DNA of 54,398 bases, the filler included, from Stramenopiles sp. TOSAG23-3 (taxonomy: Eukaryota), in assembly GCA_900128585.1 (NCBI GenBank). It is 4 parts of 4 records of this genome, joined end to end, with 100 filler letters (N's around TTAATTAATTAA, not from the genome) between each part and the next. Parts side by side here need not be neighbours in the genome. Positions count along the whole stretch, not along the records: positions 25,118 to 50,117 come from LT642295.1; 3 more parts are not named here. One strand, given 5' to 3'. This document shows positions 17,486 through 52,358 of the stretch, piece after piece; the first letter of the stretch is position 1, and each line of letters begins with the position of its first letter. A model generated the notes under the pieces. It searched no databases and was not told the origin of the DNA. It worked only from the letters and a program-made list of their open reading frames with translations. The translations under genes were made by a program, and so were the position numbers.

Positions 17486-20400
17486 TTAGTGCAGGGATTG
17501 CAAATCTTCTACCATCTTTGTCAGCGCGTCAAGATCTAAGCTGGTGCTTGTATTGTACTCGCTGCTTACACGATTTGACAATATGTGTTGCAGCACTTTT
17601 TCCGCTTCAGACTTTTCTAAATCGAGAAACCGTTCGACCAAGTCGCCGTCAATAAAGTTTTTCGAAGTACTATTTTTCCCGGGGATGTTCCTTTCGTTGC
17701 AAAACGCGCGCCATTGGCTGTGGGAAAATCCACCTATGCCACCTATGCAACGGTCGATTCCGTTCTGCAGGCGCAGCAGCAAGTCATACTGGGCCTTGTT
17801 CAGGGTGGTCAGCGTTCCTATGGAGCCCAACACTGTGCCGAGCAGCATGCTGGACCTCAGGTTGGCCATGGACTGGATAACACTGAGGTCGCCCCCACTT
17901 TCAGGCTTTGCCCCGGCGTCCAGGGCCGGCGCGCTGGCGCTCGGAAGCGACGGCGCAGTTTCGGTGGGTTGCATGACCAAGGAGCCACTGCGAAAGCAGT
18001 TGACGAACTCGCCAAGGTGAAACTCGCCAGTGATTTCCAGGCGACTCCGCTCTTCTTCGGTTTTCGCGGTAATGTTCCTTCTTGCCATGAACAAATTGTA
18101 CGCGTGCTCCGCGCCGATGAAAGCTTCGTCGTCCACGAAAGCAACGGCGGTCATCCAGTTGGCATTGAAATCCCGGGCAACTTCCTCGATGACGCCCTCG
18201 AGCGGCTTGTACACGCAAAGGCTGACGGACTTCATCAGGTCACCGACTACGATATAATCTCCCCGGGTAGTCACATGGAGGGCAAGGATGTGGCCGTGCA
18301 AGCCACACTTGCTTTTGAGCTCCCTGGTTCCGATGTTTGTGCTCCCTGTTACACTCCACTCGTAGAGTTGAATTTTGCTGTTTACGCCAGCCAAAAGCAG
18401 TCCATTGAAGCAGTTCAACGAGTAGACTGCCCCTGGGGTGTCGACTTGCGCGATGAGTTCCAGCCGGCCAGGCCGGGATTCCCCCCCGGGGCCTGTCTGC
18501 GCCGCCACGTTGAACACCAGGATGCGCCCCCGCGACGGCTCGGGTTCGTCTTCCAAGGCGTACGCAGTCCCAACAACGAAGTAATCGATGGATTCATCCG
18601 ATTTGAACCCCGCGGTAATGGCAGATATTCCCTGCTCAAAGTCATCGAGGACAAAACTATCGAGGACAGTGAACTCCTGGTCGTCAACGAGGCGCAGGTA
18701 GTTCGTCTCAATCTCTTCCCCGTTCGTGTTTTCATCTAGTTGGAACCTGCACGTCACCACGGCGAACATGCCGTGCCGCTTGCTGTGGCAGATCCTGCGC
18801 GGCTGTTCCCCCAGGGGAATTTTACGAATGTGCAACTTCTGGATCTCGTCCATCGCCCCAATTGACATGTCGGAATCGGACGCCACGGCCAGGCAATCCT
18901 CGAAGCCTTCCGATGAGAACGGGCAGACGACGTTGATGTTGCTTCGGTTGACGCTGCTGTAGTGTATCTTGCCATTGTTGGAGTATATGACCACGGGGCG
19001 GTCGGACGCAGCAAACACGTGCTTCTTGTCGCCGGACGAGAATGCCCTGAGGCCTATCGGCTGCGTCCCAATGGCGACCTTTTTTCGAGCAGACAGGGTC
19101 CCGTTGCCCTCGTCGCACAAAAATCGGACCAGGGTACCGTCCCCAAGCCCCACGAGCAGGTGAAGCGTGCCGTCAAAATTTCCAAGGAGCACACTCCGGG
19201 GGATCGTCTCACTCTCAAGGCTGCACTGGTGCAGCTGCTCCAGCGTTGGCAGCCGCAAGGTCCTCACCGTCATGTCCTTCCACATGCCCACCGCGGCAAG
19301 TTTGGAGGTTTGCCCAGCGCTGTCCCCGTCCATTGCGCCGACGTCAATACACGCTACTTCGTTGTCCAGCGTGGAGGTCGCCATCTCCTTCAAGGCGCCG
19401 CCCTGCATTTCCAGAAGGACCAGGCGCCCCCCCCCCCATCGTCAACAGAATCCTAGTATCGTTCAACGCGGCGACCGTCACAGTGTCGGAGCTGTTCTGC
19501 GGCGACCACTTGGTAACCGCCTTTAGCGTTTTGCCATCGGCCACGTTTACCGCTACCGGGGTGACTTGCACCACGTTCGAACCGGCCATGTTTCCGCATG
19601 CCAACGTCTGGTGGTCGCCGCTGAAGGCTTCTACTACCACTTCCTCCATCGTTTCGTCCTCCAGGCCGAGCACCCGGGTTTCGGACCTGAACGACATGAC
19701 CAGGTACTTGTCGTACGCTGCATCCATGGAGGGCCGCAGCGCCCACAGCCCCTTGATGCCGCTGATCCCGATTGCAGCCTGCTCGTTTATCCCTATCCCG
19801 TTCCGAATCACACGGAGCGATCCATCCTTGAAGGCGCCGCTGCAAGTGACCACCTGGCCCCGCCCTTGGTTCTCCAGGTCCACGACGCAGAAATCTACGA
19901 TAGGGCCAATGTTGATGTACGTGTCCAAGACGTCCAAATAAGATTTCGTTTCCTGGCTCTTTTCTGGGAGCAACAGCAGCAGCTGCGAGTCCCCAAACGA
20001 GCTTCCGACGTAGGACATACCGTTGCCAAGGTAGCAGATCGCAGACGCGCAGCTGGTTTCCCCCAGCTTGTCAATGTCCATCCCCTTCAAGACCCCGTTC
20101 TCCGACGCCAGCACCAGCACCCAGAGCCCTCCCAGGTGGTCCCCGAGCAGGATCCGCGAGCCGTCTGGGTCTATGCGCCCGGACGCCCGCCAAACGACGG
20201 AGGTGGTCGACAGGGACAAGGACGTCTGCCCATCGTGGTACGTGATCGTCTGCTGGCCCAGAATGAGGACCCCGCCGCCGATCGGAGAAGGGAGTGGGAT
20301 CAGCATGGACGCCCCGCTCTCCACGTTCGGCTGCTTCCACGGCCCATCCACGATCTCCTTCTTCGGGAGCAGAATTTTGTACGTTCGCACGTGCCGCCGT

Positions 20401-20966
20401 TGCTTGGTGTCCTCGTAGAGGATGCATATCGTAGGCTCCGCCGCGTTGTTCAAGAACACCATGTCGATCACTTGGAGTTCTTCCAGTCGAACGTTGAAGG
20501 CCTCAGTGAACTTACCCGAAGCGTCCATGGGAACGATTTTCAGCAGCCCGTCGTACAGGTGCAGCGCGATCAGGCCCGACTTTGGGTCCACGATGCCAAT
20601 CTGGCCGCACTCGGTCGGGCGGCCTATGAAATCCCGCACGTTGCTGGAGGCATGGGTTTGGATAGTATTCGACGCCTCGTCGAACTGGAGGACGCATATG
20701 TCGTATCGCTCCGTCATGAGCAGAAGAAGCTGCTTCCCCGAACCGCCCCCCGGCGAAAAAAGCTGCATGAACGCAACTCGGCCGTACAAAGGAACGCTCA
20801 ACGTTTGGGCAACATGGTCCTCCGCGGCCGTAAATATTTCCAAATGGCAGCCCTTTGAGACAATCAAGTTCAAATCCGTGGCGGAAGTAAATGCCCCACT
20901 GACCGCGTGGGTCACGGAGGTAGACTTTTGGGCCGTGACAAAATACGTGTAATTCTCGTCCGCCAT
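17486..20966 (-). CDS. DDB1: DNA damage-binding protein 1 (CUL4 adaptor), with an apparent 1-nt frameshift at 19427-19437
   Basis: YFVTAQK, NIGPIVDF, QVVTCSGAFKDGSLRVIRNGIGINEQA, DEIQKLHIR, GDLMKS and NFIDGDLVERFLDL. The two ORFs (19344-21005, 17486-19408) fuse if the G11 run is G10 (...TMGGGRLVLLEMQGG...). Confidence 0.95.
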
Positions 20967-21326
20967 TTCCGTCTCTGCACCACCGCTTCGTTGGTTCCTC
21001 GGCAACTAAGTATGCTAAACCGCGCCCGTCCTTTCTCGGCCGTGCTCAATATAGACGTAGACGTGGGGGAACGTAAATGTGTCCGTGTGCGTCAAGTATC
21101 GATAAAATAAAGAGAAATGCAAAGAACGGGGCACTTGTTTTATTCTTTTAATTCGGTATAAAAACGATGTCCCCATGTGTCATTGTTAATTGTTATTTAA
21201 TATCTTGTACCCCTCCCCCTCCCATTATGTATAATATGTATACATATATATTTTGAGCTTTGATTGATTATTGAACAAATCAAAAAAAAAATGATAATAA
21301 TAATAATAATATAAAAATATGATGAT

Positions 21327-25017: not shown

Positions 25018-25117
25018 NNNNNNNNNNNNNNNNNNNNNNNNNNNNNNNNNNNNNNNNNNNNTTAATTAATTAANNNNNNNNNNNNNNNNNNNNNNNNNNN
25101 NNNNNNNNNNNNNNNNN
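25018..25117. other. Artificial contig linker (N44-TTAATTAATTAA-N44)
   Basis: Six-frame stop linker flanked by Ns, identical to 50118-50217 and 52259-52358. Confidence 0.97.
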
Positions 25118-29725: not shown

Positions 29726-31380
29726 ATGGCACAAACATACAAACCAACATTAAACATGATCACTCTTAAGATTACATTTGGGGCCGAGACCAGGCGGGCG
29801 TCGATTGACGTAAATACGGCATCCTACGAAGTCTTTCTGGCGTTGCTGACTCGTTTGTTCCAGACCTTGCCAGCGAAAAACCAGTACACCGTAGTGTACG
29901 AAGACGACGACCACGACATGGTGACCGTATCGAGCAACTCGGAACTGCAAGATGCACTGCGGTTGGCCCAGACGGCGGGGTGGACGTCGCTGCGTATGAG
30001 CATTCGCCCGGTATCGGGAGGGGTGGCAGCGAGCGCTCGCCGGCCGGCCGGCGACAACGAGTCCAAAACCAACGGCGCGGACGATGGCGCCCTCCCCCCC
30101 AGGAACAAGGTGCCGCAGGCCTCGAACGGGATGCTCCAGATTATTTTGAACATTTGTGCGACACGCCCCGAGCTGCAAATTCTTCTCCAAAAGCCAAACA
30201 TTCAGGCGGCACTCCAACGGGCCTTTTCGAATCCCGACGTTCTCTCGAACCCCGAGGTAATGGAGACAACGATGAAATCGCTGTGCGAGGCGGACCCCGA
30301 GTTCGCAACCTTCCACGCAAAAGTGACGGACGCCATGAGCGCACAGAACGGCCCGCCGGCAGTGCACGAGGGCATCACCTGCGACCGGTCGGGGATGTCG
30401 CCGATCATTGGGAATCGCTACAAGAAGCAAGGGGCCAACTACGACCTGTGCGAGGCCGAGTTCGCGAAACTTTCCGATTCGGAAAAGAAAGATTACGTAA
30501 AGATTGAACGGCCCGCCAACGGCAGCTCGAGCATGCCATTTCCACCGTTTGGGATGGGCGGCATGCCAATGCCCCCTGGGGGCATGTCGATGGGGGGGCA
30601 CCCAGAGCCAATGCCAAGCGATTTGCGCGTTGTCATCGAAAAAATCTGCGAGAGGCACCCAGATCTAAAGGCCGAATCCCAGAAAGAAAAGATTAAAAAC
30701 TCCTTGGCCACTATTTTTTCTATCGAAAACCCAGACGAGCGGGACGAAGTCATGGAAACCATGCTGCTTGATACGGAGTTCAAAGCCTTCTTTGATAAGG
30801 TGAACGCTAAGATTCAACAGTTCATGAACATGAATGGCCCAGGAGGCGCGATGGGGTTTCCACCAGGCGCGAGCGCGGCGTCTAACCCGATGGGGTTCCC
30901 CCCTGCAGGAATGATGGGGCGGGGGCTTCAAGGAATGAACCCGCAGCAAATGATGCAAATGATGATGCAGGGCGGGGGCGGCCCGCCGTCGGGGGCCATG
31001 GGGTTTCNNNNNNNNNNNNNNNNNNNNNNNNNNNNNNNNNNNNNNNNNNNNNNNNNNNNNNNNNNNAAATGATGCAAATGATGATGCAGGGCGGGGGCGG
31101 CCCGCCGTCGGGGGCCATGGGGTTTCCTCCCGCAGGAATGATGGGCGGGGGACCGCAAGGGATGAACCCACAGCAAATGATGCAAATGATGAGGATGATG
31201 CAGGGTGGGGGCGGCCCGCCGCCATCGGGACCTCCTGCAGGGCCGATGGGAATGGGACCAGGCCAACCTCCCATGGGTGGCATGCCAAACCCAGAAATGA
31301 TGGAGCAAATGATGAGAATGATGCAGCGCGGAAACCAACCCACCGAACAATCTGACGACAGCGATTGGATGTACATGTAA
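29726..31380 (+). CDS. PB1 + degenerate ZZ domain protein (p62/NBR1-like) with a Met/Gly/Pro-rich repeat tail; spans an internal N gap
   Basis: PB1: LKITFGAETRR...YEDDDHDMVTVSSNSELQDAL (OPCA motif). ZZ-like: HEGITCDRSGMSPIIGNRYKKQGANYDLCEAEF. The same repeat continues across gap 31008-31066 to the stop at 31380. Confidence 0.8.
30889..31230 (+). repeat. Coding tandem repeat (~108-bp unit, MGFPPAGMMG...MNPQQMMQMMMQGGGGPPSGA) containing an assembly gap
   Basis: The unit recurs on both sides of Ns 31008-31066; 30948-31007 is identical to 31067-31126. Confidence 0.85.
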
Positions 31381-35401: not shown

Positions 35402-37607
35402 TTACAACTTTGAGGAGGGGTGGGTCGAAAGCTTAGCGCCGTCTTTTAAAAACTCGTAATCGATGAATTTTTCTACCGCTTGGAACATTGGCGGGCTCTC
35501 CACCCACTTTCCATCCTTGTCCACGTTGAGCGCAGATTCCTTGGCTGCCTTGTAGAGAGCCTCGTACACTCGTCCATCCGACCGCCCAAGGGCAGAGTTC
35601 AACACGGTATCGGAAAAATCAAACGAGTCCGTCAGCCCGATGACTTCGTTGCGCAACGAACTGCAGAGCTCGGAGACGGCAGCGTCGACCAGGGTCATCT
35701 CACGGGCGGACAGAAGGCCCACCCAGCCTTCTCCCGAGAGAATGTCTTGAAGGGCAAACATGATTGTCAGCTTGTGCAGCACAAGCTTGCACCCTTCGCT
35801 GTCGGTGTCTGGGATGTCGTTCACACTCTCCACAAACTTGGAAAGCATAAAATACTTTACGTGCGACACAGCTGTTGTGTACAGCAGTCGGGCGTTCCGA
35901 TTCCTCCCCTCGTCCACGCTCAGCTTTTGAACGTTCACACTGTGGTGAAGGGCCTGGTGGGCTTTGTAGCAGCTCACCAAGGTCCGGTACTGAAAGAGTC
36001 GCAAAAAATATTCTCGCGATTCCGCACCACGCCAAAGCAAATCTTCTAAATTTCGAGGCGACGGAGACGGTTTTCCGTCAACGACAGGGTCGAACGACCG
36101 CGAGGAGAGGGGGGCCAAGCACTGGGTCAACCCGGGCAAGGAATCCACGTCTCCCGCAATGGCTTTCTCCACCGAGCGAACAAGAAACCGGGCCGTTTGC
36201 AGGGACAAAATTACATAGTCCCCTTCTGCTGTTGTGTTTGGACCTTTAAAGTCCGCTTCTAACGGTGCTATCCCAGAGCTCATGAGGTACCCGTGCCCGC
36301 CACACGCCCTCCTCAAATCCTCTATCCCATCCGCGGCAAGGACGCAGCCATACGCCTTGAGCCCCGCGGCACTGGCGTGTATCTCAGGCAAGTCCTTGTC
36401 GCCTTCGCTGCTCGATTCTGCAGCCTTACGGCGTTGAAGGAGCCACCTGGCCACAAACTTTATCGCGTACGCGCACGATGTCCACTTCAACACCCGGTAC
36501 AGCTGCACTTGGTAGTCAAGAATTTGGTTCTCCGCCGAGTTAAACCGTGTGGAGTGGGCCGTATTCTTGAACCCTTGGTGACGAAGGGCGCTGTACCTTG
36601 CCGCAATGACGCACGCCTTGGCCAACGAAGCCCCGGCGGTGTTGGTCAGGGCAACTCTTGTTTTCAGCATGGTGATGTAGTGGCTTTTGCCCCCCCCCCC
36701 CGCCTTGCTTCTTCTTCTTCTTGGCCGGCTTTGCATCCATGGAGCCAGGCGGAGGGGATTTTATGTACCGCCCGTCTGGGCTTACGTGCTGCCGACGCTC
36801 CATCAAGTGCCGCCTTGGAATACGCACGTTTCGCATACGCAAGTACCCGATGGTCGCATCGTTGTCGCCAAGCTTCGCTCCGATGTCCCCGACTTCGATG
36901 CCAGGGAGGGCTTTGAAATCTGGGCCTCGCATTTGAACAAGGAAGACGTGGACGCCCATTGGCTTCCCGTTCAGCACCATTTGGGCATACACAGCCGCGT
37001 GGGTAGATGAGTACATCCCTGTGCTCCACCACTTCATCGATTGCAACGTGGGCGTGTTCATCACCCATTCGCCGTCCTGACGTGGGCCAGCGTGCGGGAC
37101 AAACGTTGCCGTGGTCTGCAAACCTCGAACGTTGGAGCCATGGCCCAGCTCGGTCTGCGCATAGCAGCCGATAAACCCGAGCTTCTGTGCCCTTCCCAGC
37201 CACCAGCGCTTCTGCTCGTCGCTGGTCTGACTGCGGAGGGTCGACATGAAGACCCCATAATGCAAACTCAACGGCCCAGTTCTTCCAAACTTCGCAGCGC
37301 TCATGAACGTCATGTCTTGGCCTTTTGGCCTGTACCCAGACTCCAAATGTTTCCAGTGGACGTCCATAAAATGTTTGAGGGCATTTTTTATGCTCTCCTC
37401 GCGCGACACCTCCGCGTGAACTTCGACCTCTGGGTGGTTCTTTCCGTCCAGCACATCATCGTGCGCCCCCTGAATCCACTGTCGCTGGAACGTTGCTTTT
37501 TTCCCACCGTCCAAAATGCCCATCATTTTCGCCACCGAAAACGTCGCCCGCTTCCGCTCCTCGGGAAGCACGTGCGATGTACCACCATTATCCCATGTCT
37601 GTTCCAT
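35402..37607 (-). CDS. ACOX1: Peroxisomal acyl-CoA oxidase (ACOX1-like), with an apparent 1-nt frameshift at 36690-36701
   Basis: IGCYAQTELGHGSNVRGLQTTAT, KWW, GIEVGDIGAK, RRACGGHGY, TAEGD, SALGRSDGRVYE and a C-terminal PTS1 (SKL). The two ORFs fuse if the G12 run is G11. Confidence 0.92.
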
Positions 37608-38342
37608 GGCCTTGTGCGTTTTAATTAACAAACTTGTATACACGGACAACACTCAACAGTATTATATGTTTATATTATACACATAACCAATCTTTAATTG
37701 GTGCAGCAACAACTCTTATTATTAAAGACGGTCGATATTAAAAGATAAGAAAAATTATTTGTTTATTCGAGACGACTGTGTGTGTGTGTGTGTGTTGTTC
37801 TTTGTTTCAATTGTTGTTAGAAAGAAAAAACAATAATAAAAAATAAATAATAATAATTGAAAAAATATTAGTCTAATAAATAAAAAAAAAAAAACTTTTC
37901 TTCTTTCTTCTCTTTTTCTCTCTTCTTCTTTCTTCTCTTCTTCTCTCTTCTTCTTCTTTCTTCTTCTTCTATTTTCGGCGGCGGGGGACACACCACCTCT
38001 TAAAAAAACAACAAAAAAAGATATAGAAGAAGAAAAAAAAGAAGAAAAAAGGAAGAAGAAAGAAGAGGAGATAGAAGAAGAAGATTTTTTTATTAATAAA
38101 TAATAATTATTATTTTTTTCGAAATTCAAAATTGTTTTTTTGCAATAAAATATTATATATATTTTCATTGATGATTTATTATTATTATACACGAAAAGAA
38201 GAAGCGAAGAAGAGAAGAAAGTTCTTTTAGTTGAAATAATTTTTATCCAGGAACATAATGCCAAACGTTAAAGAGTAAATTTGAACTCGAACGCTTTGAA
38301 CCTTTTTTGTTGTCGCTGTATATACGTTTGGTGTAGAAGAAC

Positions 38343-39643: not shown

Positions 39644-40740
39644 ATGACGAACTCCTCCTCGACGACCACCGCGGCGCCCGGCGCGCAACCGCCGCCGGCA
39701 TTGAACATTCTGGTCACCGTCTCGACGTATATTTTGCTGGCGCTCGTTATGTTTGGAATGGCGTGCACCGTTACGCTCGAAGCGATGAAAGAGACGTTTC
39801 GGAACAAAAAGCCATTTTTGATAGCAATTAGCTGTCAGACCATTCTTATGCCTGCCCTGGCGTTTCTCGTCGGCCGAGCCCTGCAGTTGAACGACCTTCA
39901 CAGCATTTGCCTCTTGCTTTTGGGCTGCTGTCCGGGAGGGTCCTTCTCCAACGTTTTGTGCTATTTTGCCAACGGGAACCAGGCGCTGAGCATCGGGCTC
40001 ACGTGCTTTACAAATTTGTGCTGCGTCTTTACGCTCCCACTCTTGCTATGGGTGTGGGGGTCCTCTTTCACGTCCGTCACGATACCGTAGTAAGTTGAAG
40101 TTTCTCTTTTTCTCCCCCCCCTTGCGCCGACTAACCCACTGCTATATTATGTTTTTCCAATGCCGACAGCGGCGACATTTTGGTCAGCTTTTCGCTCGTG
40201 ATTTTCCCCGCCCTATTTGGCATTTGGGTTCGCCACAAAAGCGCAAAGCACGCAAAGTATGGGGAAAGGGTGGGCTCGATCGGCGGGGCCTCCATGGTCC
40301 TTGGCGCCGCAATCAGCGGATTCGTCGCGAACGGCGAGACGTTGGCGGACCGGGACCTCTTGCCAGCGACCACTTTGGTGTCGGTCCTGATCGTTGGGCC
40401 GATGGGTATGCTTTGTTCATTTTTGATTGCGTACTTTTTTCCCATCGGGCCGCGAATGGCGACTCAGGACATCGTCACCATCAGCCTAGAGACCGGGGTC
40501 CAGAACACCGTCCTGGCCCTTGCCATCGTCAACATTAGTTTCTCGGACGTGCTGAGCCCCTTTGAACTCTTCCAGGCGCAGTTCTTTCCCATCTGCTGGG
40601 GGCTCTTTGTTTTGCTGGAAGGGTCCCTCCTCGTCCTTGGGTACAGGCTGTACTTGCGCAAGACGAAAAAGGAGCCGGCCGAGATCGTTCTGGCGGAGAC
40701 GGAGGGGGGATTAGGGGAGACCCAAAACGATAAGTCTTAA
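39644..40740 (+). CDS. Bile acid:sodium symporter (BASS/SLC10) family transporter; exons 39644-40089 and 40170-40740
   Basis: MFGMAC, CQTILMP, GCCPGGSFSN and TISLETGVQN. An 80-nt intron 40090-40169 (GTAAGT...CTAAC...CAG) removes the apparent stop and gives ...VTIPYGDILVS... Confidence 0.92.
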
Positions 40741-40959
40741 ATTTATAAAAAAGTGGAATTCTTTTGATATCTTATCATATGAAATGATAAGAATATAATT
40801 TTTGTGTATCTCATAAAAATTATTATTATTATACCTTTTGTTGGTAAAAAAAACAAAAAATAAATTGATGATAAAAAATTGCACTTAAAAATAACAGCCT
40901 GCCAGTGTTTTGTTTTTAATTAATAAAAATTTAAAAGCATTTTTCATCTTCTGACTTTC

Positions 40960-43900
40960 TCATTCATCTCTCATCGTCTCTCGTCCCCCCCACTTCCCTA
41001 CGTTGACATCGCTGCTTGAATCTGAGGAGTCGTCCTCAACATCACTAAACAATCCGTAACCATGTTCCACGAGCTTCTGAATATCCGGTTTTGTTTTCTT
41101 TTTGTCCCGGTCGCAGTCGAACGTATCCTCGAACGTCGAGAAAGCGGAAGTCGACGCACCATTGCGCGTTGCTTCGGACCACCTTGGCAAGAGCGCCGCT
41201 CTCGGCACTTCGGATTTTACGCCAGCTTCTTTCCGTACAATAGTTTCGTGACGAAAATTGGCGTTAATTGGCTTTTGCTTTCGTTTTCGCTTACTTCTTC
41301 GTAATATTTGGGGCGTTTCGTCATGCATGCTGCTAGCTGCGGGACTCGAGGCATTTATCTTGTACATCGTTTCAACGTCGTCGAACGTTGCAGTATGGTC
41401 TGAACTTGGCCCAGCGACTTGCCCGCCACGTGCATTTCTTTGCAGCAGTTCTGCTTTAGCAACGTGGTATAAAGGCGAGTCTGCAAAACGAAAGTCCGTC
41501 CAACGTTCATTTTCTCTTTCTTCGACAATTTTTACTGCATGGTTACTGGGGTTCTGGGACAATTGGGAAATTAAATCCTTGTAATTTTTTTTTTCCGTGC
41601 TACTCTGCAAACACTCTTTGATTGACCTGAAGCACGAGATCTGCCGTTCAGTGGCCCGTACTTGTCTACCCAAAATAAATGCACATTTGTGAATCAAAGG
41701 GTTCGATTCGCTATTTCCGCCAATAGCGATAGAAGGGTACATATCTGCGAGGAAATCCAACTCCTTCTTCGACCAACTGTCTCTGGCGCCGTAACGCAAG
41801 AGCCCCTTTCGCATTTTTTTGTGTTTCTGTATAATCTCTCTTTTCTCCGGTTCTTTGTCCCGTGTCGTCGGCAGCCTGTTCCCATACACAAACGCTAATT
41901 TTTTCCAGATTGTGCCAGCTAGAGGAAAGTGGTTTCTTAGAAATTCTTCTAACACCTGTTTTTCCCTGTCTAAACTTTCTTTTTCTCTTTGCATACGCAT
42001 ATTGCTTTGGAGTGCGGCCCCTTTTAAATCTGCGTACGCGCCTCTCTTTGTAAGCAACGTCGACGGCTTGTGCCTTGGTGTAGTCAGTAAATGCTGCACA
42101 CACGTTTCCCGCTTCTTGACCGCATCGTTGTCCAGTGTTTTCCTGGTTCTTTTTACAAAGACTGGTTCTGACGTTTTTTTATTTATAGATAGGATTACGT
42201 TACTTGTCTTTGTCAACGCACTGCTGTACAAACCTTCGGCTGCCGTTGTTCGCATGTCGTCCCTTTGCAGCCGCAGCCAATCTTCATGCAATTCGTGCAC
42301 GGCCTTGTTCGCCCACAGCGTTATACGTGGGCAGTGCAACCCTTCAGACACCAAAGTATTCAAGCGTCCAAATATTTGCATCCACATCTCCCCGTGCACC
42401 GTGATGTCTTTATTTTCTGGAATGTCGAAGGCAACGAACATATCCGTTAAGATTCGAGAGTGATCTTCTGTGTGATATGACTGCCCTCTTCCACCCATGG
42501 ACCCTGATATTACCACAACATTTTTTACACGTGCGTTTTTGAGAGCAGTCAAGGTCGCTTTTATATTTTGCCTTTTGCTCAGTTTGTAACCCACAGGGTC
42601 TAGTATCTGTTCGTCCGATGAGGCAATATTAATGAGACTATTTAGAACCTTATCCTTATGCCTGTCGTTGCATACTACGATTTTTTGTCCCTTGTGATTG
42701 AGAGTTACAATTACAAGGTCCTCTCCCCTGTACCTCTCTCTTATTGCTTCTTGCAATTTTTCTTGATTAATGATGGGACTAATTGTTTTGTTTGTTATGA
42801 TCAGCGCTTGTCTGTACTGATCGATGCCGTTGCCCGTTGTACCACGAAGCATGTCGTCCACCATCTCGCATATACCATCGAAATCGATTCGCCATCCCCT
42901 TTTCTCCCGGTTTCCATTTTTTATTTTCGTATTTATGCTTCTTACTCTATCAAGTAAATTGCATTGGTCTGAATAGTGTTCCAGAGTGCGTTTGGATGGC
43001 GATTTGATGGAAATGACCCCCTTACTACTTCGCTGTACTTTGAACCCGTATAAAATGGGCTGGCCTATTGTTTCGCCCACGTCTAGCCGATTTCCATGCT
43101 CTTGCACACGTGCGATCATATTGTCCCAGACATGCGGACTGCACCATTCGGTCTCCAAAATTACTCTCCTGTACGTTTCAGTAATCGTTTCATTCTCCGT
43201 GTTTTCGCGAAATGTTACTATGCTTCGTATTATAAACGGTTGAGAGGGGTGAGCGGACGAGCTATCAATTTGAGCTTTGTAAGCGGCATAGTTCGAAGGC
43301 ACGTCCATAACAATTATGTGAGGCTGTACTCCTTCAATACTGTTCACGCAGAGCGCTCCTGGCGTAGCTGTTATAAACATTACTGCGAAAACGTGGGCCC
43401 CAATCCCGCTTTTTCTGATTGTTTCGACGCTGATCTCCTCCGATTCAGAACTGCTGCGATCCTCTTCGCTACTGGACGATTCTTCTAGCCGTCCATGCCA
43501 GGTTAGGCGCTCCCCTTTGTTCGCATTACGCCCAGGAGATGCGGCAGACATGTCCGCTTCATCCATGATTAAAATAAATCTTTTTTTCTGTTCGATTCCG
43601 TCGTATTTGTGTCCCCTTCCATTCAACTGGTGGAGTATAGGATCTTTTCGTTCTTTGTCTTTGATATAGAATTTGGCGTTTTGGCCGGCTGCGAATCTTG
43701 CCCCTCTCGGGCGTATATCAGATTTAGTAAGTTCATACTCCGTCAAATCCCTGCACCGAAATTTGCATGTGTTGTCGGAAGTGGAAATTATACGCCCTGG
43801 GAAAACTTTCTGAGAGGTCCTAATATGACTGTGAAACATCCTTTTAATATGTGAAGCATTGTTCAGAGCAACAATTGCAAAACGAATGGGCCCTTTCGTC

Positions 43901-46878
43901 GCAAGGTTTATTTTTTTTTCGTCTGTTTTAGTTTTTAACTGATATTTTTTAATATCTTTCTCATCCGGAAACTTAGCTTTCAGCAGTTTTTCTATGTCTC
44001 CATTAAGGACTTCTATTGCTTCGATCATGTCTTTTTTTCCAGCATAGAGCCCTCCCGAGTTCCGCACAAACAGCACTGGAAGGCACCCCAAAACAAAAAT
44101 GGAATCCCATGCGCACTTTGCAGCTTCCGATGATTTCCCTGATTGTGTGAGACCAAACACAATGTTTTCGATGGTGCTGTTCCCTTCGTCCTTTTTTCGT
44201 CGCACTTTCATATTTCGGGAGGCGTATTTGGCATCTTTGATGTGCTTCGCTTTATCCTTTTCGATAGATAATTGCCCCCAGAGCCATTTCACGATCTTGA
44301 TTTCTAGTGGGCTTTTCAGCTGCGACAAGGTATAATCCACTTCTTCTCGGGACAGAGAGAACTGTGACGCAGTCCCAGGGTGCAAGCAGCCTGTAGGGCT
44401 GATGGACGGGAGCGGGTCCGAGACGTGGGCCGGTGGTGGATATATTAACCTCCACTGATCGTCCTCAAATTCCTCCATGTTGACCTCTGTTAACGCATCG
44501 AAGTGATTTTCATCATACATCACATAGCTGCATTCTTGCCGTTCGTCATACAGCCATTCGGAAAACAAGCGCCAACGTTCATTTTCATTTGTTGGATTTT
44601 TATGGTAAAGTGCAATAGGGATATTAAAAAGCACAGAAAGCATTTCTATTTCTGTGTGCTGTGCCCAACCGTCTCTTTTGTTTTTGCCGATCGAAGCGCG
44701 TGCAATAGCAGCATCGACTTCTTGCTGCCCTATCCTATTTACAAGCTGCCAGTAGTCGTTGTTCGATTCGTTCAAATTAGCCAATACTTTCCGCAGGGAA
44801 CATCCTGTGAACTCCGGGTTGCACGTTTTTATGCTCGTTCCCAGCTTGGAAATGGCGCTTTGTCGACGGTCTTTAGATTGATTCATGATATGGTGTGCTA
44901 CTGAAGTGTACCCACAGTCGCCATCGGTTCGGACCAGGAGGCGTAATGCAGAATTTTTCCGCTGCCAACATTTTGAGTCGTCAATGCCAATCTTTAAAAT
45001 TACCCTTATCCTCCTTCCACCGATGCCCCTAGTGACTAAATGCAATGTGTCACCTGCCCCCAAACCCAACTCTGCGGCTGTTGTAGTTTTATCCAAATCT
45101 TTTCCTTGAAAGAGGACGCGGAACTCTCTGTGCAGTTCAGTTTGCTTTCGGGGGGGGATCTGTATTGCATCCATCCATTTACTTCGGATGATGTGGGCAT
45201 TGTCGCTCGGTTCGCATTTTATTATAATGATCGGTTTGTTCATGTACTTTATGCATATGTCAAAAGTGACGTCCCCAGTTAGGTCTATAGTTTCTGGCAC
45301 GTTTTTTTCGGTACAATTGCCTGGTTCATCTTTGGCGGAAACAGTTCGCAAATCGTTATTTGGCTGTGTTTTCCCGACCGCTCGTCGGCTTCGTTGCCGG
45401 GATCGGCGATGACGACGGTTGTGTTTTACAGTGTCTTCCCTGCGGGCGTTTGCCGGAGGGGAAGCGGCCGAGGGTTGTTCTTCTTGGTCAACTGGGCGTT
45501 TGGGAATTTTACGACAAATAATGTACAGAAAAAACACTGCCAAGGTCACTTCCCGGGGCGCAGCAACCTGCAAACCGCGCCATGACAATCGACCACGTAA
45601 CCATGCCCACCCGCTTTCGCTCGGCATGCGGCGAAAAAACTCGAGCGGCCTGCTGGTGCTACGGATCTCGTTCGCCAAGGTGCGAAGCGGGTGCAACACG
45701 TACGTTTCGTAACGAGTCGCCATGTATTTGGTGGCGCCCGGGATGCCCTCATTCAAAAGTGAGTGAAACTGTTCCAACACGTACGTTCGATAAAGCGCTC
45801 CTCCGCGGGATAAGAGAATTCCTACGCTGGATAAGTCTTCCTGGCCCGGGGCATGAGCACTGTGGTTTTGACCACCAATACCCTTTTCCCCGACGTACGT
45901 TTTTCCACCGGCAGCACAAGTTCCCTGGGCGTGCCCTAACTTCCGACATTTAGGGGTTTCTTCTTTTGTGGCTTCAGCTTCAGGCGTAGGGAAAATTTCG
46001 CCAAACTCAAAGTTCTTTAAAGCCCCGTTCGCAGCAGCGTCGTATGACACCTTTGCTCCAGTGGAATCAAGACTCGATGACACGAGGAGCACGAGGAGTG
46101 CACGCCCAATCAGAGACGACACCTTCCCTTTTCGACCGGTCACTCTAGCAGTCTTAATTGCTTTTGTGCTTGTGAAAATTGACCAGGCGGGCTTTGCGCT
46201 AATATGTTGCGCAGGCAAGGCAACTCCCAAGTTCGAACATTTCTTTCGCGAGCCACGTAGAAAATTACATAGCGAGAACCATAGTGTTTTCACCGCACTC
46301 TTCCAAAACCGGAAGGAGGGTGGTTCCTTTCGTTCAAGTTCGCGCCTTTCTGTAGCAACGCGGCCGATTGCCCGCACCCGGAATTCGATGGCAGGGGGAA
46401 GTGGCTCTGCAAGTAGCTCCTGTTCGATCGCAGAGGCATCCTCTGACACAAACTTCGTGCAAATGGCCTCAACCTCTTTCAAGGGGAGGGCGTCCGGGTG
46501 GCCGGCCTTTTCCCCTTTCGTGCGTTCTACGCCGTTGCCATTGGAGTGGCCAACCTTCCGTTCGACCGGGAGAGAGGCAGGCACCTGGGTTAAAACCTTT
46601 ACATGGTTGTCGGCATGACCTGAGATGTAGTAACTCAATGTTTTAACTGTGCCGCTTCGATCTTGTGGGATACGAACAACTCCCGGTGTTGACGGACAGT
46701 GCTGGTCGATGGAAGTGAAGCGGTTGTTTGGATCCGAATAAAGACGAAGTTGCTTCTTCGTCATTATCCTCATCGTCGTTTCTAGGACTCCTTTGTATTT
46801 ACCTGTATGTTGGGATTTACAGCGGGATACCACCAGGGCCCAGGGTTGGGTGGCGCATTGGCGGATGTCGGACGGCAT
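40960..46878 (-). CDS. 1972-aa multidomain protein: hydrophobic segments - ubiquitin-like (GG) - OTU protease - Z1-type SF2 helicase/ATPase - Myb-like repeat
   Basis: Uninterrupted 5.9-kb ORF. Ubl: RVLFQGKDL...GAGDTLHLVTRGIGG. OTU: DGDC...WAQHTEI...HFD. Helicase motifs: GLTQSGKS, IMDEAD, ITATP, SGSMGGRG, MQIFGRL. Myb-like: WSKKELDFL...LGRQVRATERQ. Confidence 0.78.
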   Translation of the reverse strand: MPSDIRQCATQPWALVVSRCKSQHTGKYKGVLETTMRIMTKKQLRLYSDPNNRFTSIDQHCPSTPGVVRIPQDRSGTVKTLSYYISGHADNHVKVLTQVPASLPVERKVGHSNGNGVERTKGEKAGHPDALPLKEVEAICTKFVSEDASAIEQELLAEPLPPAIEFRVRAIGRVATERRELERKEPPSFRFWKSAVKTLWFSLCNFLRGSRKKCSNLGVALPAQHISAKPAWSIFTSTKAIKTARVTGRKGKVSSLIGRALLVLLVSSSLDSTGAKVSYDAAANGALKNFEFGEIFPTPEAEATKEETPKCRKLGHAQGTCAAGGKTYVGEKGIGGQNHSAHAPGQEDLSSVGILLSRGGALYRTYVLEQFHSLLNEGIPGATKYMATRYETYVLHPLRTLANEIRSTSRPLEFFRRMPSESGWAWLRGRLSWRGLQVAAPREVTLAVFFLYIICRKIPKRPVDQEEQPSAASPPANARREDTVKHNRRHRRSRQRSRRAVGKTQPNNDLRTVSAKDEPGNCTEKNVPETIDLTGDVTFDICIKYMNKPIIIIKCEPSDNAHIIRSKWMDAIQIPPRKQTELHREFRVLFQGKDLDKTTTAAELGLGAGDTLHLVTRGIGGRRIRVILKIGIDDSKCWQRKNSALRLLVRTDGDCGYTSVAHHIMNQSKDRRQSAISKLGTSIKTCNPEFTGCSLRKVLANLNESNNDYWQLVNRIGQQEVDAAIARASIGKNKRDGWAQHTEIEMLSVLFNIPIALYHKNPTNENERWRLFSEWLYDERQECSYVMYDENHFDALTEVNMEEFEDDQWRLIYPPPAHVSDPLPSISPTGCLHPGTASQFSLSREEVDYTLSQLKSPLEIKIVKWLWGQLSIEKDKAKHIKDAKYASRNMKVRRKKDEGNSTIENIVFGLTQSGKSSEAAKCAWDSIFVLGCLPVLFVRNSGGLYAGKKDMIEAIEVLNGDIEKLLKAKFPDEKDIKKYQLKTKTDEKKINLATKGPIRFAIVALNNASHIKRMFHSHIRTSQKVFPGRIISTSDNTCKFRCRDLTEYELTKSDIRPRGARFAAGQNAKFYIKDKERKDPILHQLNGRGHKYDGIEQKKRFILIMDEADMSAASPGRNANKGERLTWHGRLEESSSSEEDRSSSESEEISVETIRKSGIGAHVFAVMFITATPGALCVNSIEGVQPHIIVMDVPSNYAAYKAQIDSSSAHPSQPFIIRSIVTFRENTENETITETYRRVILETEWCSPHVWDNMIARVQEHGNRLDVGETIGQPILYGFKVQRSSKGVISIKSPSKRTLEHYSDQCNLLDRVRSINTKIKNGNREKRGWRIDFDGICEMVDDMLRGTTGNGIDQYRQALIITNKTISPIINQEKLQEAIRERYRGEDLVIVTLNHKGQKIVVCNDRHKDKVLNSLINIASSDEQILDPVGYKLSKRQNIKATLTALKNARVKNVVVISGSMGGRGQSYHTEDHSRILTDMFVAFDIPENKDITVHGEMWMQIFGRLNTLVSEGLHCPRITLWANKAVHELHEDWLRLQRDDMRTTAAEGLYSSALTKTSNVILSINKKTSEPVFVKRTRKTLDNDAVKKRETCVQHLLTTPRHKPSTLLTKRGAYADLKGAALQSNMRMQREKESLDREKQVLEEFLRNHFPLAGTIWKKLAFVYGNRLPTTRDKEPEKREIIQKHKKMRKGLLRYGARDSWSKKELDFLADMYPSIAIGGNSESNPLIHKCAFILGRQVRATERQISCFRSIKECLQSSTEKKNYKDLISQLSQNPSNHAVKIVEERENERWTDFRFADSPLYHVAKAELLQRNARGGQVAGPSSDHTATFDDVETMYKINASSPAASSMHDETPQILRRSKRKRKQKPINANFRHETIVRKEAGVKSEVPRAALLPRWSEATRNGASTSAFSTFEDTFDCDRDKKKTKPDIQKLVEHGYGLFSDVEDDSSDSSSDVNVGKWGGRETMRDE

Positions 46879-47199
46879 GGTGTTCGTAGCGCGCGTGGGT
46901 TTTGCGTGATTAAAAATTGTTTGAATGTTTGAATATAACTTTTAAAACTGATTATGTTTGTGTATGTCTATTTTTTTCTTTCTTTCATTTATAACATTTT
47001 TCTTTCTTTCAACTGTCGGTGTGGAGATGGACCAACACTTGGATTGGTGAGATTGTTGTACGATAATAAAAGGCTGACAGAGGAGGGATGAAGTAATTGA
47101 GATTTTGAAGAAATTCAGAATGAGATGTGTTCAGATCTCTTATTCTATGCTGTGTTAGTGTTAAGTGCTATTGTTGAAGATAAAAAACATAAAACATTA

Positions 47200-47385
47200 A
47201 TGCTATTGGGTGTATTTATGAAAACTGTAACAAAAACTTTTTGTAAAATTTACAAACATTTTTGTAAATAACCCTATTTCTATCAAGATGTTTATGCTAT
47301 TGGGTGTATTTATGAAAACTGTAACAAAAACTTTTTTTGTAAAATTTACAAACAATTTTGTAAATAACCCTAATTCTATCTAGAC
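47200..47385 (+). repeat. ~94-bp tandem duplication (2 copies) with imperfect internal inverted repeat
   Basis: atgctattgggtgtatttatgaaaactgtaacaaaaac...gtaaataacccta starts at both 47200 and 47294. Confidence 0.9.
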
Positions 47386-47830
47386 TTTATTAAATTAATG
47401 TTCCAAAAGAAATAAGAAACCAAAAGAAGACTCGTCGCATTAATTAATTATATTTACCGTACGAGGTAAAAAATACCGCAAGAAGAAGGAGAAGAAGATG
47501 AAGAAGAAGTAGAAGAAAGAAGAAAAGAAGAAGAAGTAGAAGAAAGAAGAAGAAGAAGAAGAAGAAGAAAAGGAAGAAGAAAGAAGAAGAAAAATATTAT
47601 CATCATCATCATCCACCATGTTGTCGTCGTCGAGAAAAAAGGAAGAAGTGTTGTTGCATGTTTATAGTAGTATATATATACCCTTGTTGAACCCATTCAT
47701 ATGTATGGAAGAAGATGTGTATCCATTTGAAGAGAAGCTAGAGTGATTTATAGTAGAAATTTGAAGCAACAGGATACGGCAGATTTTGCGCAAACTGTAA
47801 CCACGATCCTCTCTAAAGCAAAACTTGGAT

Positions 47831-50117
47831 ATGATGGATGATGGATGGATGGACAACTATCTAAGTGACCAGTCTGATGACGACTCGGAACCAAACTTTG
47901 CGAGTTCTCAATTCGATGGGACGCACTCTCCTGCGACCTTGCAACTGAAAAGACCACCCCTTAATGCCTCTGTACTAGAAGACCCATCAGGTAAATGCTT
48001 AAAAATCATTCTCACCGCACCGTCAAATAACTCTGTTAGTTTTGAGTATTTGCCACTTGACGTTGAGGGGAAGGGAAAGAAGTGTTCATGGGCTTTCAGG
48101 AAATCTACTGGTGAACAAAGTGCTTCGTGCAACAGTAACCAGAAGTTTTTTCGTACTGCCGGGTTCTACTATTTGCTGTGCCAAGATTCGCTTGGAACCC
48201 CTACAGAGCAGAAAAAATTTCTGTACGAAGGGCATGAGTATACTCACGTAAGAGTGAGTAGAGACGCTGAAGCCAAGAAAAGGAAAGGGGGCCCAAAGCT
48301 GGGGAAGAACACGGGACCCAAGCGCCAGCGCTCCACGGCCAGCCCTGAAGGACGGATTGGAAACCCAGGTCAAAGTTCGAGCAGTGGCGCTGGGCTGGAG
48401 AGAGCGGTTGACGTGTTGGCCACTGATAGTGACACCACTGCAATCGATGGCGAAGGAACGAATTTACCAACGGAATTTTCAATGGGCGGTTATGCTGTTG
48501 AGCTAAAGCTGGTTATGCAACATGAACAGAGGGGTTTTGCAAGCATACCAGATCCAGAAAAATGGAAATCTCTTTACCATAAAAATGATGGTCAGGCAAC
48601 CTCCCTCGTGACAGTCTTTTCAGGACAGACGTTTCAGGATATCAGTGATTTGGAGAAGAAGATATCCTACAAAGATTTAATATCCGATGAAATAACTGAT
48701 TCGATATGCAGAGTACTTCAAGAAGGTAAGGACATTTGCGATCAAATAAGGCGCAGATCATATGACTTCAACATCTGGAATTATAAGCGACATTACAGGA
48801 CACCAAAATACGAACGTTTGTCTGTAAGCTCAATCGAACCGGTATATGATTGGTTCAATATCATATGGCATGACAATAGACGGACAGGGTTCTTGGGCCT
48901 TGCCCCGAAGGGTCCCGGAAAGAAATCCAAAGAAGGGACTTCTTTAAAAACTACTGCCTCTGAATCTACGACTCCAGGTTCGCCACCTTCTGGTACCCCG
49001 TCACGTACTGCTTCCTCACCAGAACGTGAAGGCAGTAAGAGTTTACCTTCTGCTAGTTCTAGTCCAACCGACATGATGGATTCCCTAGCGAATTATGCCT
49101 ACGACGCCTTTCCCCGAAAATCTCTCGTTGAAAAATTTATATACAAGGTATGCAACCAAGATTTTCTTACCCGTCAAAAACTTATTCTTCAGCTTGCGCA
49201 TATGAGGAACAAGCATAGCAACCTAAACGATTCATATGTTGGTTTGGGCGAACTGCAAGATCTAAAGAAGGATGGACCGAAAATATTTTCATACGGACAC
49301 TCCCTGCGGGACTCAAAGTTCCAGTCCTCCTTGCTAATCTTGGCCGCGAAACTTCACGACAGCTACGCCGTTGGAGTCCTATTGAGCCTGGGCTTTGACC
49401 CCATGGTGCAGGATATAAATGGTGACACATTTTTGCATCATGCCATCCGTGATAATTTTGAAGACGTTGTCATGGAGGCGCTTAAACATGGGTCTGCAGA
49501 GAATTTGAAGTGCATTGAAAACAACAAGGGGGAGACATCCCTGTCTTTGTCCCAGTTTTGTTCGTTAAAAATATTCGCGCTACAAGAGGGGGTGTCAGAA
49601 GGTCATGATTGGCATTATGTAGTGCCGAAAACTGCACCCAAAGAGTTCAAGAATGTCCGTGAAATTGTGCTCGAAGCGGCGAAAAGACTTTCGGGGATGT
49701 TAAACTTTGCATCCATAGCGTTTAAGAATGACCATGAAATTGTGCTCGAAGCTGTGAAAAAGTATGGGTTGGCGTTACAATATGTACCCCAGGCGTTGAA
49801 AAAGGACCGAAAATTTGTGCTCGAAGCGGTGAAAAGTGATGGGTTGGCGTTAGAAATTGTTTTCGAAGCGGTGAAACCGTATGGGTTCGCGTTAAAATAT
49901 ACATCCGAAAAATTTCAGAAAGACCGTAAAATTGTGTTCGAAGCGGTGAAACGTTATGCGGTGGCGTTACAATATGCATCCGAAGAGTTGAAGAAAGACC
50001 GTGAAATTGTGTTCAAAGCGGTGAAACAGTATGGGTTGGCGTTACAATATGCATCCGAAGAGTTGAAGAAAGACCGTGAAATTGTGTTCGAAGCGGTGCA
50101 ACGTGATGGGCGTGCGT
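47831..50117 (+). CDS. Ankyrin-repeat + DUF4116-repeat protein, 3'-truncated at contig end
   Basis: Ankyrin-like LLILAAK...QDINGDTFLHHAI...NNKGETSL (~49330-49550). Tandem ~25-aa ALQYASEELKKDREIVFEAVK units typical of DUF4116 (~49630-50117). Confidence 0.8.
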
Positions 50118-50217
50118 NNNNNNNNNNNNNNNNNNNNNNNNNNNNNNNNNNNNNNNNNNNNTTAATTAATTAANNNNNNNNNNNNNNNNNNNNNNNNNNN
50201 NNNNNNNNNNNNNNNNN
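50118..50217. other. Artificial contig linker
   Basis: N44-TTAATTAATTAA-N44. Confidence 0.97.
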
Positions 50218-52258: not shown

Positions 52259-52358
52259 NNNNNNNNNNNNNNNNNNNNNNNNNNNNNNNNNNNNNNNNNN
52301 NNTTAATTAATTAANNNNNNNNNNNNNNNNNNNNNNNNNNNNNNNNNNNNNNNNNNNN
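52259..52358. other. Artificial contig linker
   Basis: N44-TTAATTAATTAA-N44. Confidence 0.97.

Follow-up and report, generated by a model that had tools for sequence, protein, structure and literature searches.

The processing of ubiquitin fusions is textbook knowledge for ribosomal proteins, and catalogues of algal fusions list internal or membrane-linked ones too; the gene described here, which lies in a stretch of 54,398 nucleotides (nt; hereafter the window) from Stramenopiles sp. TOSAG23-3 (GenBank assembly GCA_900128585.1; 28.4 Mb in 7088 contigs), may encode a variation on that theme. Ub-eL40, Ub-eS31, FUBI-eS30 and the algal fusions resemble the window gene in carrying a ubiquitin-like domain (Ubl) that ends in Gly-Gly (GG) in frame with a cargo, and protists and fungi are known to have both internal ubiquitins and fusions with membrane proteins (PMC6332867). 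The window gene differs from these precursors in that its Ubl is internal, behind a leader of ~540 amino acids (aa) with hydrophobic segments, that its cargo is a 1351-aa OTU-SF2 ATPase while the same leader serves another cargo elsewhere, and that positions 71 to 74 of its Ubl tail read T, R, G, I instead of the canonical L71, R72, L73, R74. My tentative reading, to which I give somewhat less than an even chance, is that one precursor is made, that a host deubiquitinase (DUB) would cut it in trans after Gly621 and so release the OTU-SF2 ATPase, and that a swappable front cassette would stay behind. What the sequences show directly is the anatomy of the protein, a Ubl and GG under constraint, an unrelated cargo that carries the same leader, transmembrane segment and Ubl-GG, and relatives of the ATPase that lack the cassette; it is from these that I infer the processing. 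The features of the gene, some of them compared with a sister locus (L004), are listed below in window positions.

40960..46878, minus strand: single open reading frame (ORF) of 1972 aa, a single copy in the assembly
46066..46122, minus strand: first hydrophobic segment, aa 253-271, with a 19-mer hydropathy of 1.54 (1.82 in the sister locus) and a basic run before it
45739..45942, minus strand: leader motif, aa 313-380, common to two more genes of the genome and belonging to no Pfam family
45667..45787, minus strand: short in-frame repeat closing the leader, present twice at a distance of 81 nt, from a repeat scan
45514..45549, minus strand: second hydrophobic segment, aa 444-455, a 12-residue core (VTLAVFFLYIIC) with a basic stretch after it, kept in the sister lineage
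45265..45513, minus strand: linker, aa 456-538, in which aa 488-500 form an Arg-rich run and the ratio of non-synonymous to synonymous substitution rates (dN/dS) is an unconstrained 1.28 over aa 461-535
45016..45264, minus strand: Ubl domain, aa 539-621, with an in-register GG end and a 7-residue insertion
45013..45018, minus strand: putative scissile bond Gly621/Arg622, a candidate site of cleavage
44488..44958, minus strand: OTU-like domain, aa 641-797, with Asp652, Cys655 (nt 44914-44916), His792 (nt 44503-44505) and Asp794
42244..44376, minus strand: SF2 helicase/translocase without a family name, aa 835-1545, with Walker A at 909-916, DEAD at 1106-1109 and two RecA lobes
41278..41301, minus strand: basic run resembling a nuclear localisation signal (NLS), aa 1860-1867, present in the sister protein too and putative in function

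Several other systems share part of this layout. Pestivirus NS2 sits in a membrane, and NS3 combines a protease with an SF2 helicase. A ubiquitin before NS3 acts as a processing signal cut by cellular hydrolases in cytopathogenic pestiviruses (PMC8310069), but there a near-canonical ubiquitin was recently captured by an RNA virus, whereas the window gene is a cellular, single-copy gene with a diverged Ubl under purifying selection. Arterivirus PLP2 and tymovirus PRO likewise combine an OTU fold and a helicase in one polypeptide (PMC3968130); their OTU proteases are essential, whereas the nucleophile of the window OTU has been lost in the sister lineage, and the candidate site in the window protein, unlike theirs, is formed by the tail of a folded Ubl that precedes the OTU. 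In Otu1/YOD1 a Ubl fold comes directly before the OTU, as in the window gene, but Otu1 lacks an SF2 ATPase and the leader, and the Otu1-like Ubl of this genome shows no GG by eye. Crinkler (CR) proteins resemble the cassette in placing modular Ubl headers before swapped enzymatic C-termini, often NTPases; these headers are N-terminal, SSK1/Mcs4-like Ubls for which GG cleavage is not described in the accessible portion of the source (PMC5289972), whereas the window Ubl is internal. As for Crinkler marks in the window protein, no restriction endonuclease was found in its C-terminal 427 aa and no LXLFLAK-type motif was seen by eye. Neither a leader-transmembrane-Ubl-GG cassette with exchangeable cargo nor a Ubl-OTU-SF2 fusion was found described in the open-licence literature. 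What makes the locus worth attention is that one genome places a shared leader and Ubl-GG before enzymes that are unrelated, while relatives lacking the cassette provide a natural control.

A public gene model of the locus, P0011, links aa 428 directly to aa 798, with GT...AG at the ends, and so splices out aa 429-797; the whole finding would then be an intron. This is scarcely credible: the frame stays open throughout the stretch, which contains two recognisable domains and is under purifying selection against L004 (dN/dS 0.42, p 2.5e-5, one pairwise comparison), with values of 0.31 for the Ubl (p 0.004) and 0.30 for the OTU beside 1.28 for the adjacent linker. A contig from a poly(A) RNA run, covering 44199-44680, crosses the acceptor predicted by P0011 unspliced, although DNA carry-over is possible, and among the contigs listed for the four runs compared, out of 22, none showed a joint that skips 44487-45594. 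The intron was rejected on dN/dS and the RNA-run contigs together, and sequence comparison confirms that the Ubl-OTU region is coding and under purifying selection. The first ~240 codons of the ORF have no counterpart in L004.

The leader matched two more loci of the genome, G000:C761 and G000:C3635, the former with E-values of 2.9e-5 and 1.1e-5 in reciprocal genome searches. The C761 gene (L043:582-3572, plus strand) has a signal-peptide-like start, the leader, a clear transmembrane segment (19-mer 2.39), a Ubl ending in GG followed by Met, and a Dam-like cargo (E 1.8e-5 against Dam methylase, below the cut-off) that is unrelated to the OTU-SF2 cargo. An internal repeat and a basic run of NLS type are also present in this cargo. 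The C3635 gene has a signal-peptide-like start and the leader before its contig ends. Two further genes carry Ubl-GG and a P-loop NTPase without the shared leader, G000:C668 with two hydrophobic segments and G000:C3270 with none. Because single proteins were the only queries used for paralogues within the genome, distant ones of the ATPase or the leader may have been missed; a leader profile search recovered five proteins among 5031 candidates (drawn from 5.8 billion proteins), namely versions of the three genes and P0085. That search returned no ATPase relatives, and the leader was carried by 0/111 viral contigs. The leader at L060:1354-1989 (plus strand), P0084 and P0085, probably in a secreted protein or before a weak GHKL-ATPase match, looks like a small mobile module without a name. 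At L039:2265-6857 (minus strand) and L040:845-5242 (plus strand), two large genes place a divergent P-loop NTPase behind an internal Ubl-GG, with a short upstream motif that appears common to both by eye.

A different fusion is encoded at L054:2443-4695 (plus strand; G000:C6558), where canonical ubiquitin runs straight into a glutamine amidotransferase/SIS enzyme of the GFAT/GlmS type at that enzyme's N-terminal Cys. By established Ntn-hydrolase chemistry such an amidotransferase needs a free N-terminal Cys, and because of this the fusion would have to be cut to expose its nucleophile; I take it as a sign that host fusion processing is exploited in this genome. No earlier description of a ubiquitin-amidotransferase fusion was found in the open-licence literature. 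Elsewhere, a near-canonical ubiquitin (87%) lies internal to an open frame at L015:1-1893 (plus strand; G000:C229), whose downstream part I take, by eye and with no Pfam support, to resemble the region before a retroelement reverse transcriptase, and a GG-less Ubl sits in a loop of an apparent four-domain voltage-gated cation channel at L041:285-6074 (minus strand; G000:C683).

Over aa ~541-621 the window Ubl aligned, GG in register, to single-ubiquitin entries (E ~2e-5 to 1e-4); it is 33-36% identical to ubiquitin, and its match to PF00240 (E 8.5e-4) fell below the curated cut-off. The preliminary description of this DNA had pointed to a ubiquitin-like tail, HLVTRGIGG, followed by Arg, some 1350 further residues and, soon after, an OTU catalytic region. 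These points held up: the tail is aa 613-621 with its last Gly codon at nt 45018-45016, Arg622 comes next, the GG is followed by 1351 aa, and Asp652 and Cys655 lie 31 and 34 residues on. In the surface numbering of ubiquitin, the Ubl retains I36, R42, K48, H68, V70 and R72, and its position 44 is Leu. The genome was then surveyed through 40 of its 41 PF00240 matches, which gave 33 distinct domains, those less than 50% identical to ubiquitin being called divergent. A GG end was present in 11/33 and, among the divergent ones, in 5/26; in those 26, G75 and G76 occurred together five times, G75 alone never, and G76 alone two to three times (Fisher p 3e-4 to 9e-4). Because the two glycines co-occur beyond chance, the in-register GG is retained as a unit. 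R72 was kept in four of the five GG-ending domains compared with 2/21 other divergent Ubls. Within the gene's own lineage, the GG/R junction is present in all three sister sequences (P0002, P0004 and P0006); P0002 and P0006 differ at 0/84 positions of the Ubl and at 8/176 of the OTU with its linker. Searches for more Ubl-OTU orthologues returned one protein among 1710 candidates and one locus among 65 pattern matches in metagenomes.

The ATPase was modelled with good confidence from a 79-sequence alignment (pLDDT 88, pTM 0.85) as a two-lobe SF2 ATPase, and it carries Walker A, DExD, motif III, motif VI and two RecA lobes. Its best PDB matches, LGP2/MDA5, SNF2h and FANCM, were about equally distant (E 7e-8 to 3e-6, TM-score ~0.3), and structural matches were roughly equal across the SF2 families tested (RLR, SNF2, Z1-type and ResIII) at 8-12% identity; a search of profile A1 against the PDB gave two matches only, at chance level. 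No Pfam, PHROG or NCBIfam helicase family was among the matches listed for 39 members, one such list giving 25 of 45 families. The nearest viral matches in Atlas and BFVD are uncharacterised Nucleocytoviricota proteins, including those of algal giant viruses, and the ATPase was carried by 0/14 viral contigs. At E<=0.001 the family comprises 76 representatives, one of which, P0011, models the window locus itself. None of the 76 had a Ubl (the best independent E-value (iE), 0.044, fell inside the ATPase core; 60/76 were also scanned with Pfam), and the Ubl-GG cassette was present in none of the 75 other relatives. An N-terminal USP-type peptidase occurs in the same family, by Pfam match in P0043 and P0073 and by eye in P0074, and a RING finger in P0016 (RING in one to two members and USP in three overall). 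This is thus an SF2 family without a name, of at least 76 representatives, that repeatedly pairs with ubiquitin-system domains. An OTU-like insert noticed by eye in the relative P0009 was unsupported (hhalign probability 2.9; iE 4-6).

The mechanism that I favour would run as follows. The front part, made up of the leader, one or two hydrophobic segments and Ubl-GG, would be a cassette placed before different cargoes; a host DUB, probably of the USP type, would cut in trans after Gly621; the released 1351-aa OTU-SF2 ATPase would act on nucleic acid, probably in the nucleus; and the front part would remain behind, with about an even chance of being on a membrane. The Gly at the Leu73 position may slow the cut or tie it to one dedicated protease. 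The basic NLS-like run would, if functional, fit the NLS-bearing product that had been proposed. Should the cut and the tether both prove real, cells would be using DUB cleavage to control where enzymes are located, and the unusual tail would suggest that the protease is dedicated or foreign; if the Ubl stays uncut, the gene would be one more lineage-specific domain fusion.

A number of observations weigh against this reading. Only 2/3 of the leader genes of the genome carry a Ubl, the third ending with its contig; P0084 has the leader without a Ubl match, and P0085 has it before a weak GHKL-ATPase match, also without one. The Ubls of the window gene and of C761 did not group in a poorly resolved tree; the cassette may therefore have arisen by two separate assemblies. 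The three sister sequences belong to a single lineage at 78-86% identity in which 85% of the neighbouring residues are identical too, so that the conservation of GG/R, although complete, is weak evidence by itself. The proposed mimicry of ubiquitin stands for the GG and R72, which are in register, but not for positions 71, 73 and 74, where the Ubl has T, G and I and ubiquitin L, L and R. Leu73 of ubiquitin occupies a pocket of USPs (PMC10637973) and the L73P substitution stops many DUB families (PMC7056813), so that cleavage by a generic DUB is not assured for a tail without Leu73/Arg74. A canonical tail is nevertheless not an absolute requirement, since USP36 cuts FUBI, whose identity to ubiquitin is 36% (PMC8354635). 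The claim that some DUB cuts at the GG therefore stays plausible from the residues kept (GG, R72, R42, H68, V70, I36), from the constraint on the domain and from the ATPase relatives that lack the cassette, with the divergent tail as its weak side.

The membrane tether is subject to similar doubts, all judgements of transmembrane segments and signal peptides having been made by hydropathy and by eye. The core of the second segment is exceptional as a 12-mer: its mean hydropathy of 2.74 tops every 12-mer from 15 proteins of the genome that are presumed soluble (9,499 residues in all), and 4/75 ATPase relatives reach it. As a helix the TM-like segment of the preliminary description is marginal, since its best 19-mer (1.52) is reached by four segments of the soluble set and by 37/75 ATPase relatives and is exceeded by two segments within the protein's own ATPase, while true transmembrane control segments mostly score 1.7-3.2. 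No N-terminal signal peptide was seen by eye in the window protein, and the side supposed to be tethered contains an Arg-rich run. The basic residues before the first and after the second segment would fit a topology with the N-terminus in, the loop out and the C-terminus in, but the 15 residues that follow the second segment carry a net charge of only +1. The segment at aa 253-271, as marginal as the other, is possibly a signal anchor or a remnant signal peptide, and the short repeat at the leader end would probably form an amphipathic helix. By hydropathy the membrane anchor is thus marginal, and it is backed indirectly by C761, where the same leader comes with a signal-peptide-like start, a clear transmembrane segment and Ubl-GG.

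The protein's own OTU is one conceivable source of the cut. The cut-out domain matched PF02338 with 27.1 bits (cut-off 23.3), and Cys655, His792 and Asp794 align with the canonical OTUs of the genome, giving a Cys-His-Asp site. It was proposed in the preliminary description that this OTU or a host DUB cuts at the GG and frees a short-lived OTU-helicase with an Arg N-degron from a membrane anchor; the self-arming version has the OTU cut in cis. OTU-fold viral enzymes can indeed cut polyproteins, in cis included, but most OTUs fail to cut linear ubiquitin fusions (PMC3968130). The nucleophile, a TGT Cys in the window gene, is an AGC Ser in L004, and it is Ser in 3/3 sister sequences that cover the site; since these still have GG/R, the cut site is retained where self-cleavage is impossible, although they count as one lineage and one event. 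The other cassette-type genes, moreover, have no OTU and carry Met or Gly after the GG. Cleavage in cis is improbable on these grounds, and the idea of self-arming fares poorly with it; nor does anything favour a regulated switch over constitutive maturation, or speak for conjugation of the GG once freed. The main precursor-processing enzymes of mammals are UCHL3, USP9X, USP7, USP5 and OTULIN (PMC4522658). More likely, the window protein's OTU is unnecessary for the cut and would edit, or merely bind, ubiquitin near the target of the ATPase. Structure prediction did not bear on the matter either way: a single-sequence AlphaFold model of aa 530-830 was unusable (pLDDT 35), and complex predictions of the Ubl with its own OTU, run without alignments, scored 0.16 and 0.22 against a mark of 0.34. 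A phmmer search of the OTU against the PDB gave 0 matches. Under the N-end rule, N-terminal Arg ranks as an N-degron residue. A UBR-box protein is encoded at G000:C1403 and lysines lie 8, 15 and 20 residues from Arg622, so that degradation of an Arg-started product would be possible; yet judged from the sequences the N-degron is not a shared design feature of the cassette, Arg following the GG in the window gene only among the five divergent GG-ending Ubls (the others have Met, Gly, Gly and Gly). Orthology with Otu1 was rejected, the genome having its Otu1-like gene at another locus (L008). A protein with OTU, RING and PHD domains and an atypical OTU Cys loop is encoded at L045:1109-3679 (minus strand; G000:C1322).

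Cleavage in trans has its most serious competitor in an integral Ubl that is never cut and serves as a p97/proteasome adaptor or as an intramolecular plug of the OTU, as in Otu1/YOD1, with the GG a relic of an insertion derived from ubiquitin and Gly73/Ile74 making it resistant to DUBs. I consider this a minority possibility of some substance. The changes at tail positions 71, 73 and 74 suit it, as does the fact that 21/26 divergent Ubls of the genome are GG-less integral domains; a Ubl of ~35% identity could keep two given residues by chance about once in ten (~1/10), and Otu1 (UBX-like plus OTU) is the Atlas cluster closest to aa 530-810 (score 0.86, a lead only). Against an uncut Ubl, G75 and G76 are kept jointly and not independently, the residues of the Ile44 patch and R72 that DUBs read are kept, and the Otu1-like gene of the genome lies elsewhere. 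It is rather unlikely, in turn, that the Ubl is a decoy or tripwire whose tail resists host DUBs until the promiscuous ubiquitin protease of an invader, for instance a giant DNA virus, unleashes a nucleic-acid enzyme. Such a trap would explain why a host-type recognition surface is kept while the P4/P3 tail has diverged, and the patchy distribution of cargoes that are nucleic-acid or P-loop enzymes would agree with it, as would the Nucleocytoviricota neighbours of the ATPase in Atlas and BFVD; but the Ubl is conserved and not fast-evolving, the gene is a single copy among housekeeping genes, and no toxic effector domain was found in the C-terminal 427 aa. A wider proposal, unlikely though not far-fetched, is that a reusable tether-and-release cassette, made of a secretory leader, a membrane segment and a divergent Ubl-GG, parks unrelated nucleic-acid or NTPase enzymes at a membrane until one particular ubiquitin protease, either that of the host acting on a signal or that of an invading virus, cuts the non-canonical tail. 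It would be the natural counterpart of the split-ubiquitin release trick and, if true, might amount to a protease-tripwire immune system of unicellular eukaryotes.

The window as a whole is eukaryotic and intron-poor, and its other genes include ORC3, an RSE1/CPSF-type gene, an acyl-CoA oxidase and PSF1. Neither a toxic effector nor a nuclease family was found in the C-terminal 427 aa of the window protein. A transposon-borne origin of the gene was ruled out, the OTU and ATPase parts having one genome match each, and no convincing terminal inverted repeat was present in 40000-48000. The sequencing runs that contain parts of the gene came from marine habitats wherever a habitat is on record. 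The window joins several contigs, with runs of N at 25018-25117, 50118-50217, 52259-52358 and 31008-31066, and the gene lies wholly within contig C6562. Two genes of the window, the RSE1/DDB1/CPSF1-type gene (17486-21005) and the acyl-CoA oxidase (35402-37652), each appear as two ORFs, through an intron or a frameshift. Upstream of the gene, an intergenic duplication of ~95 nt spans 47197-47384, each copy having a palindromic core, and a GAA-rich tract adjoins it.

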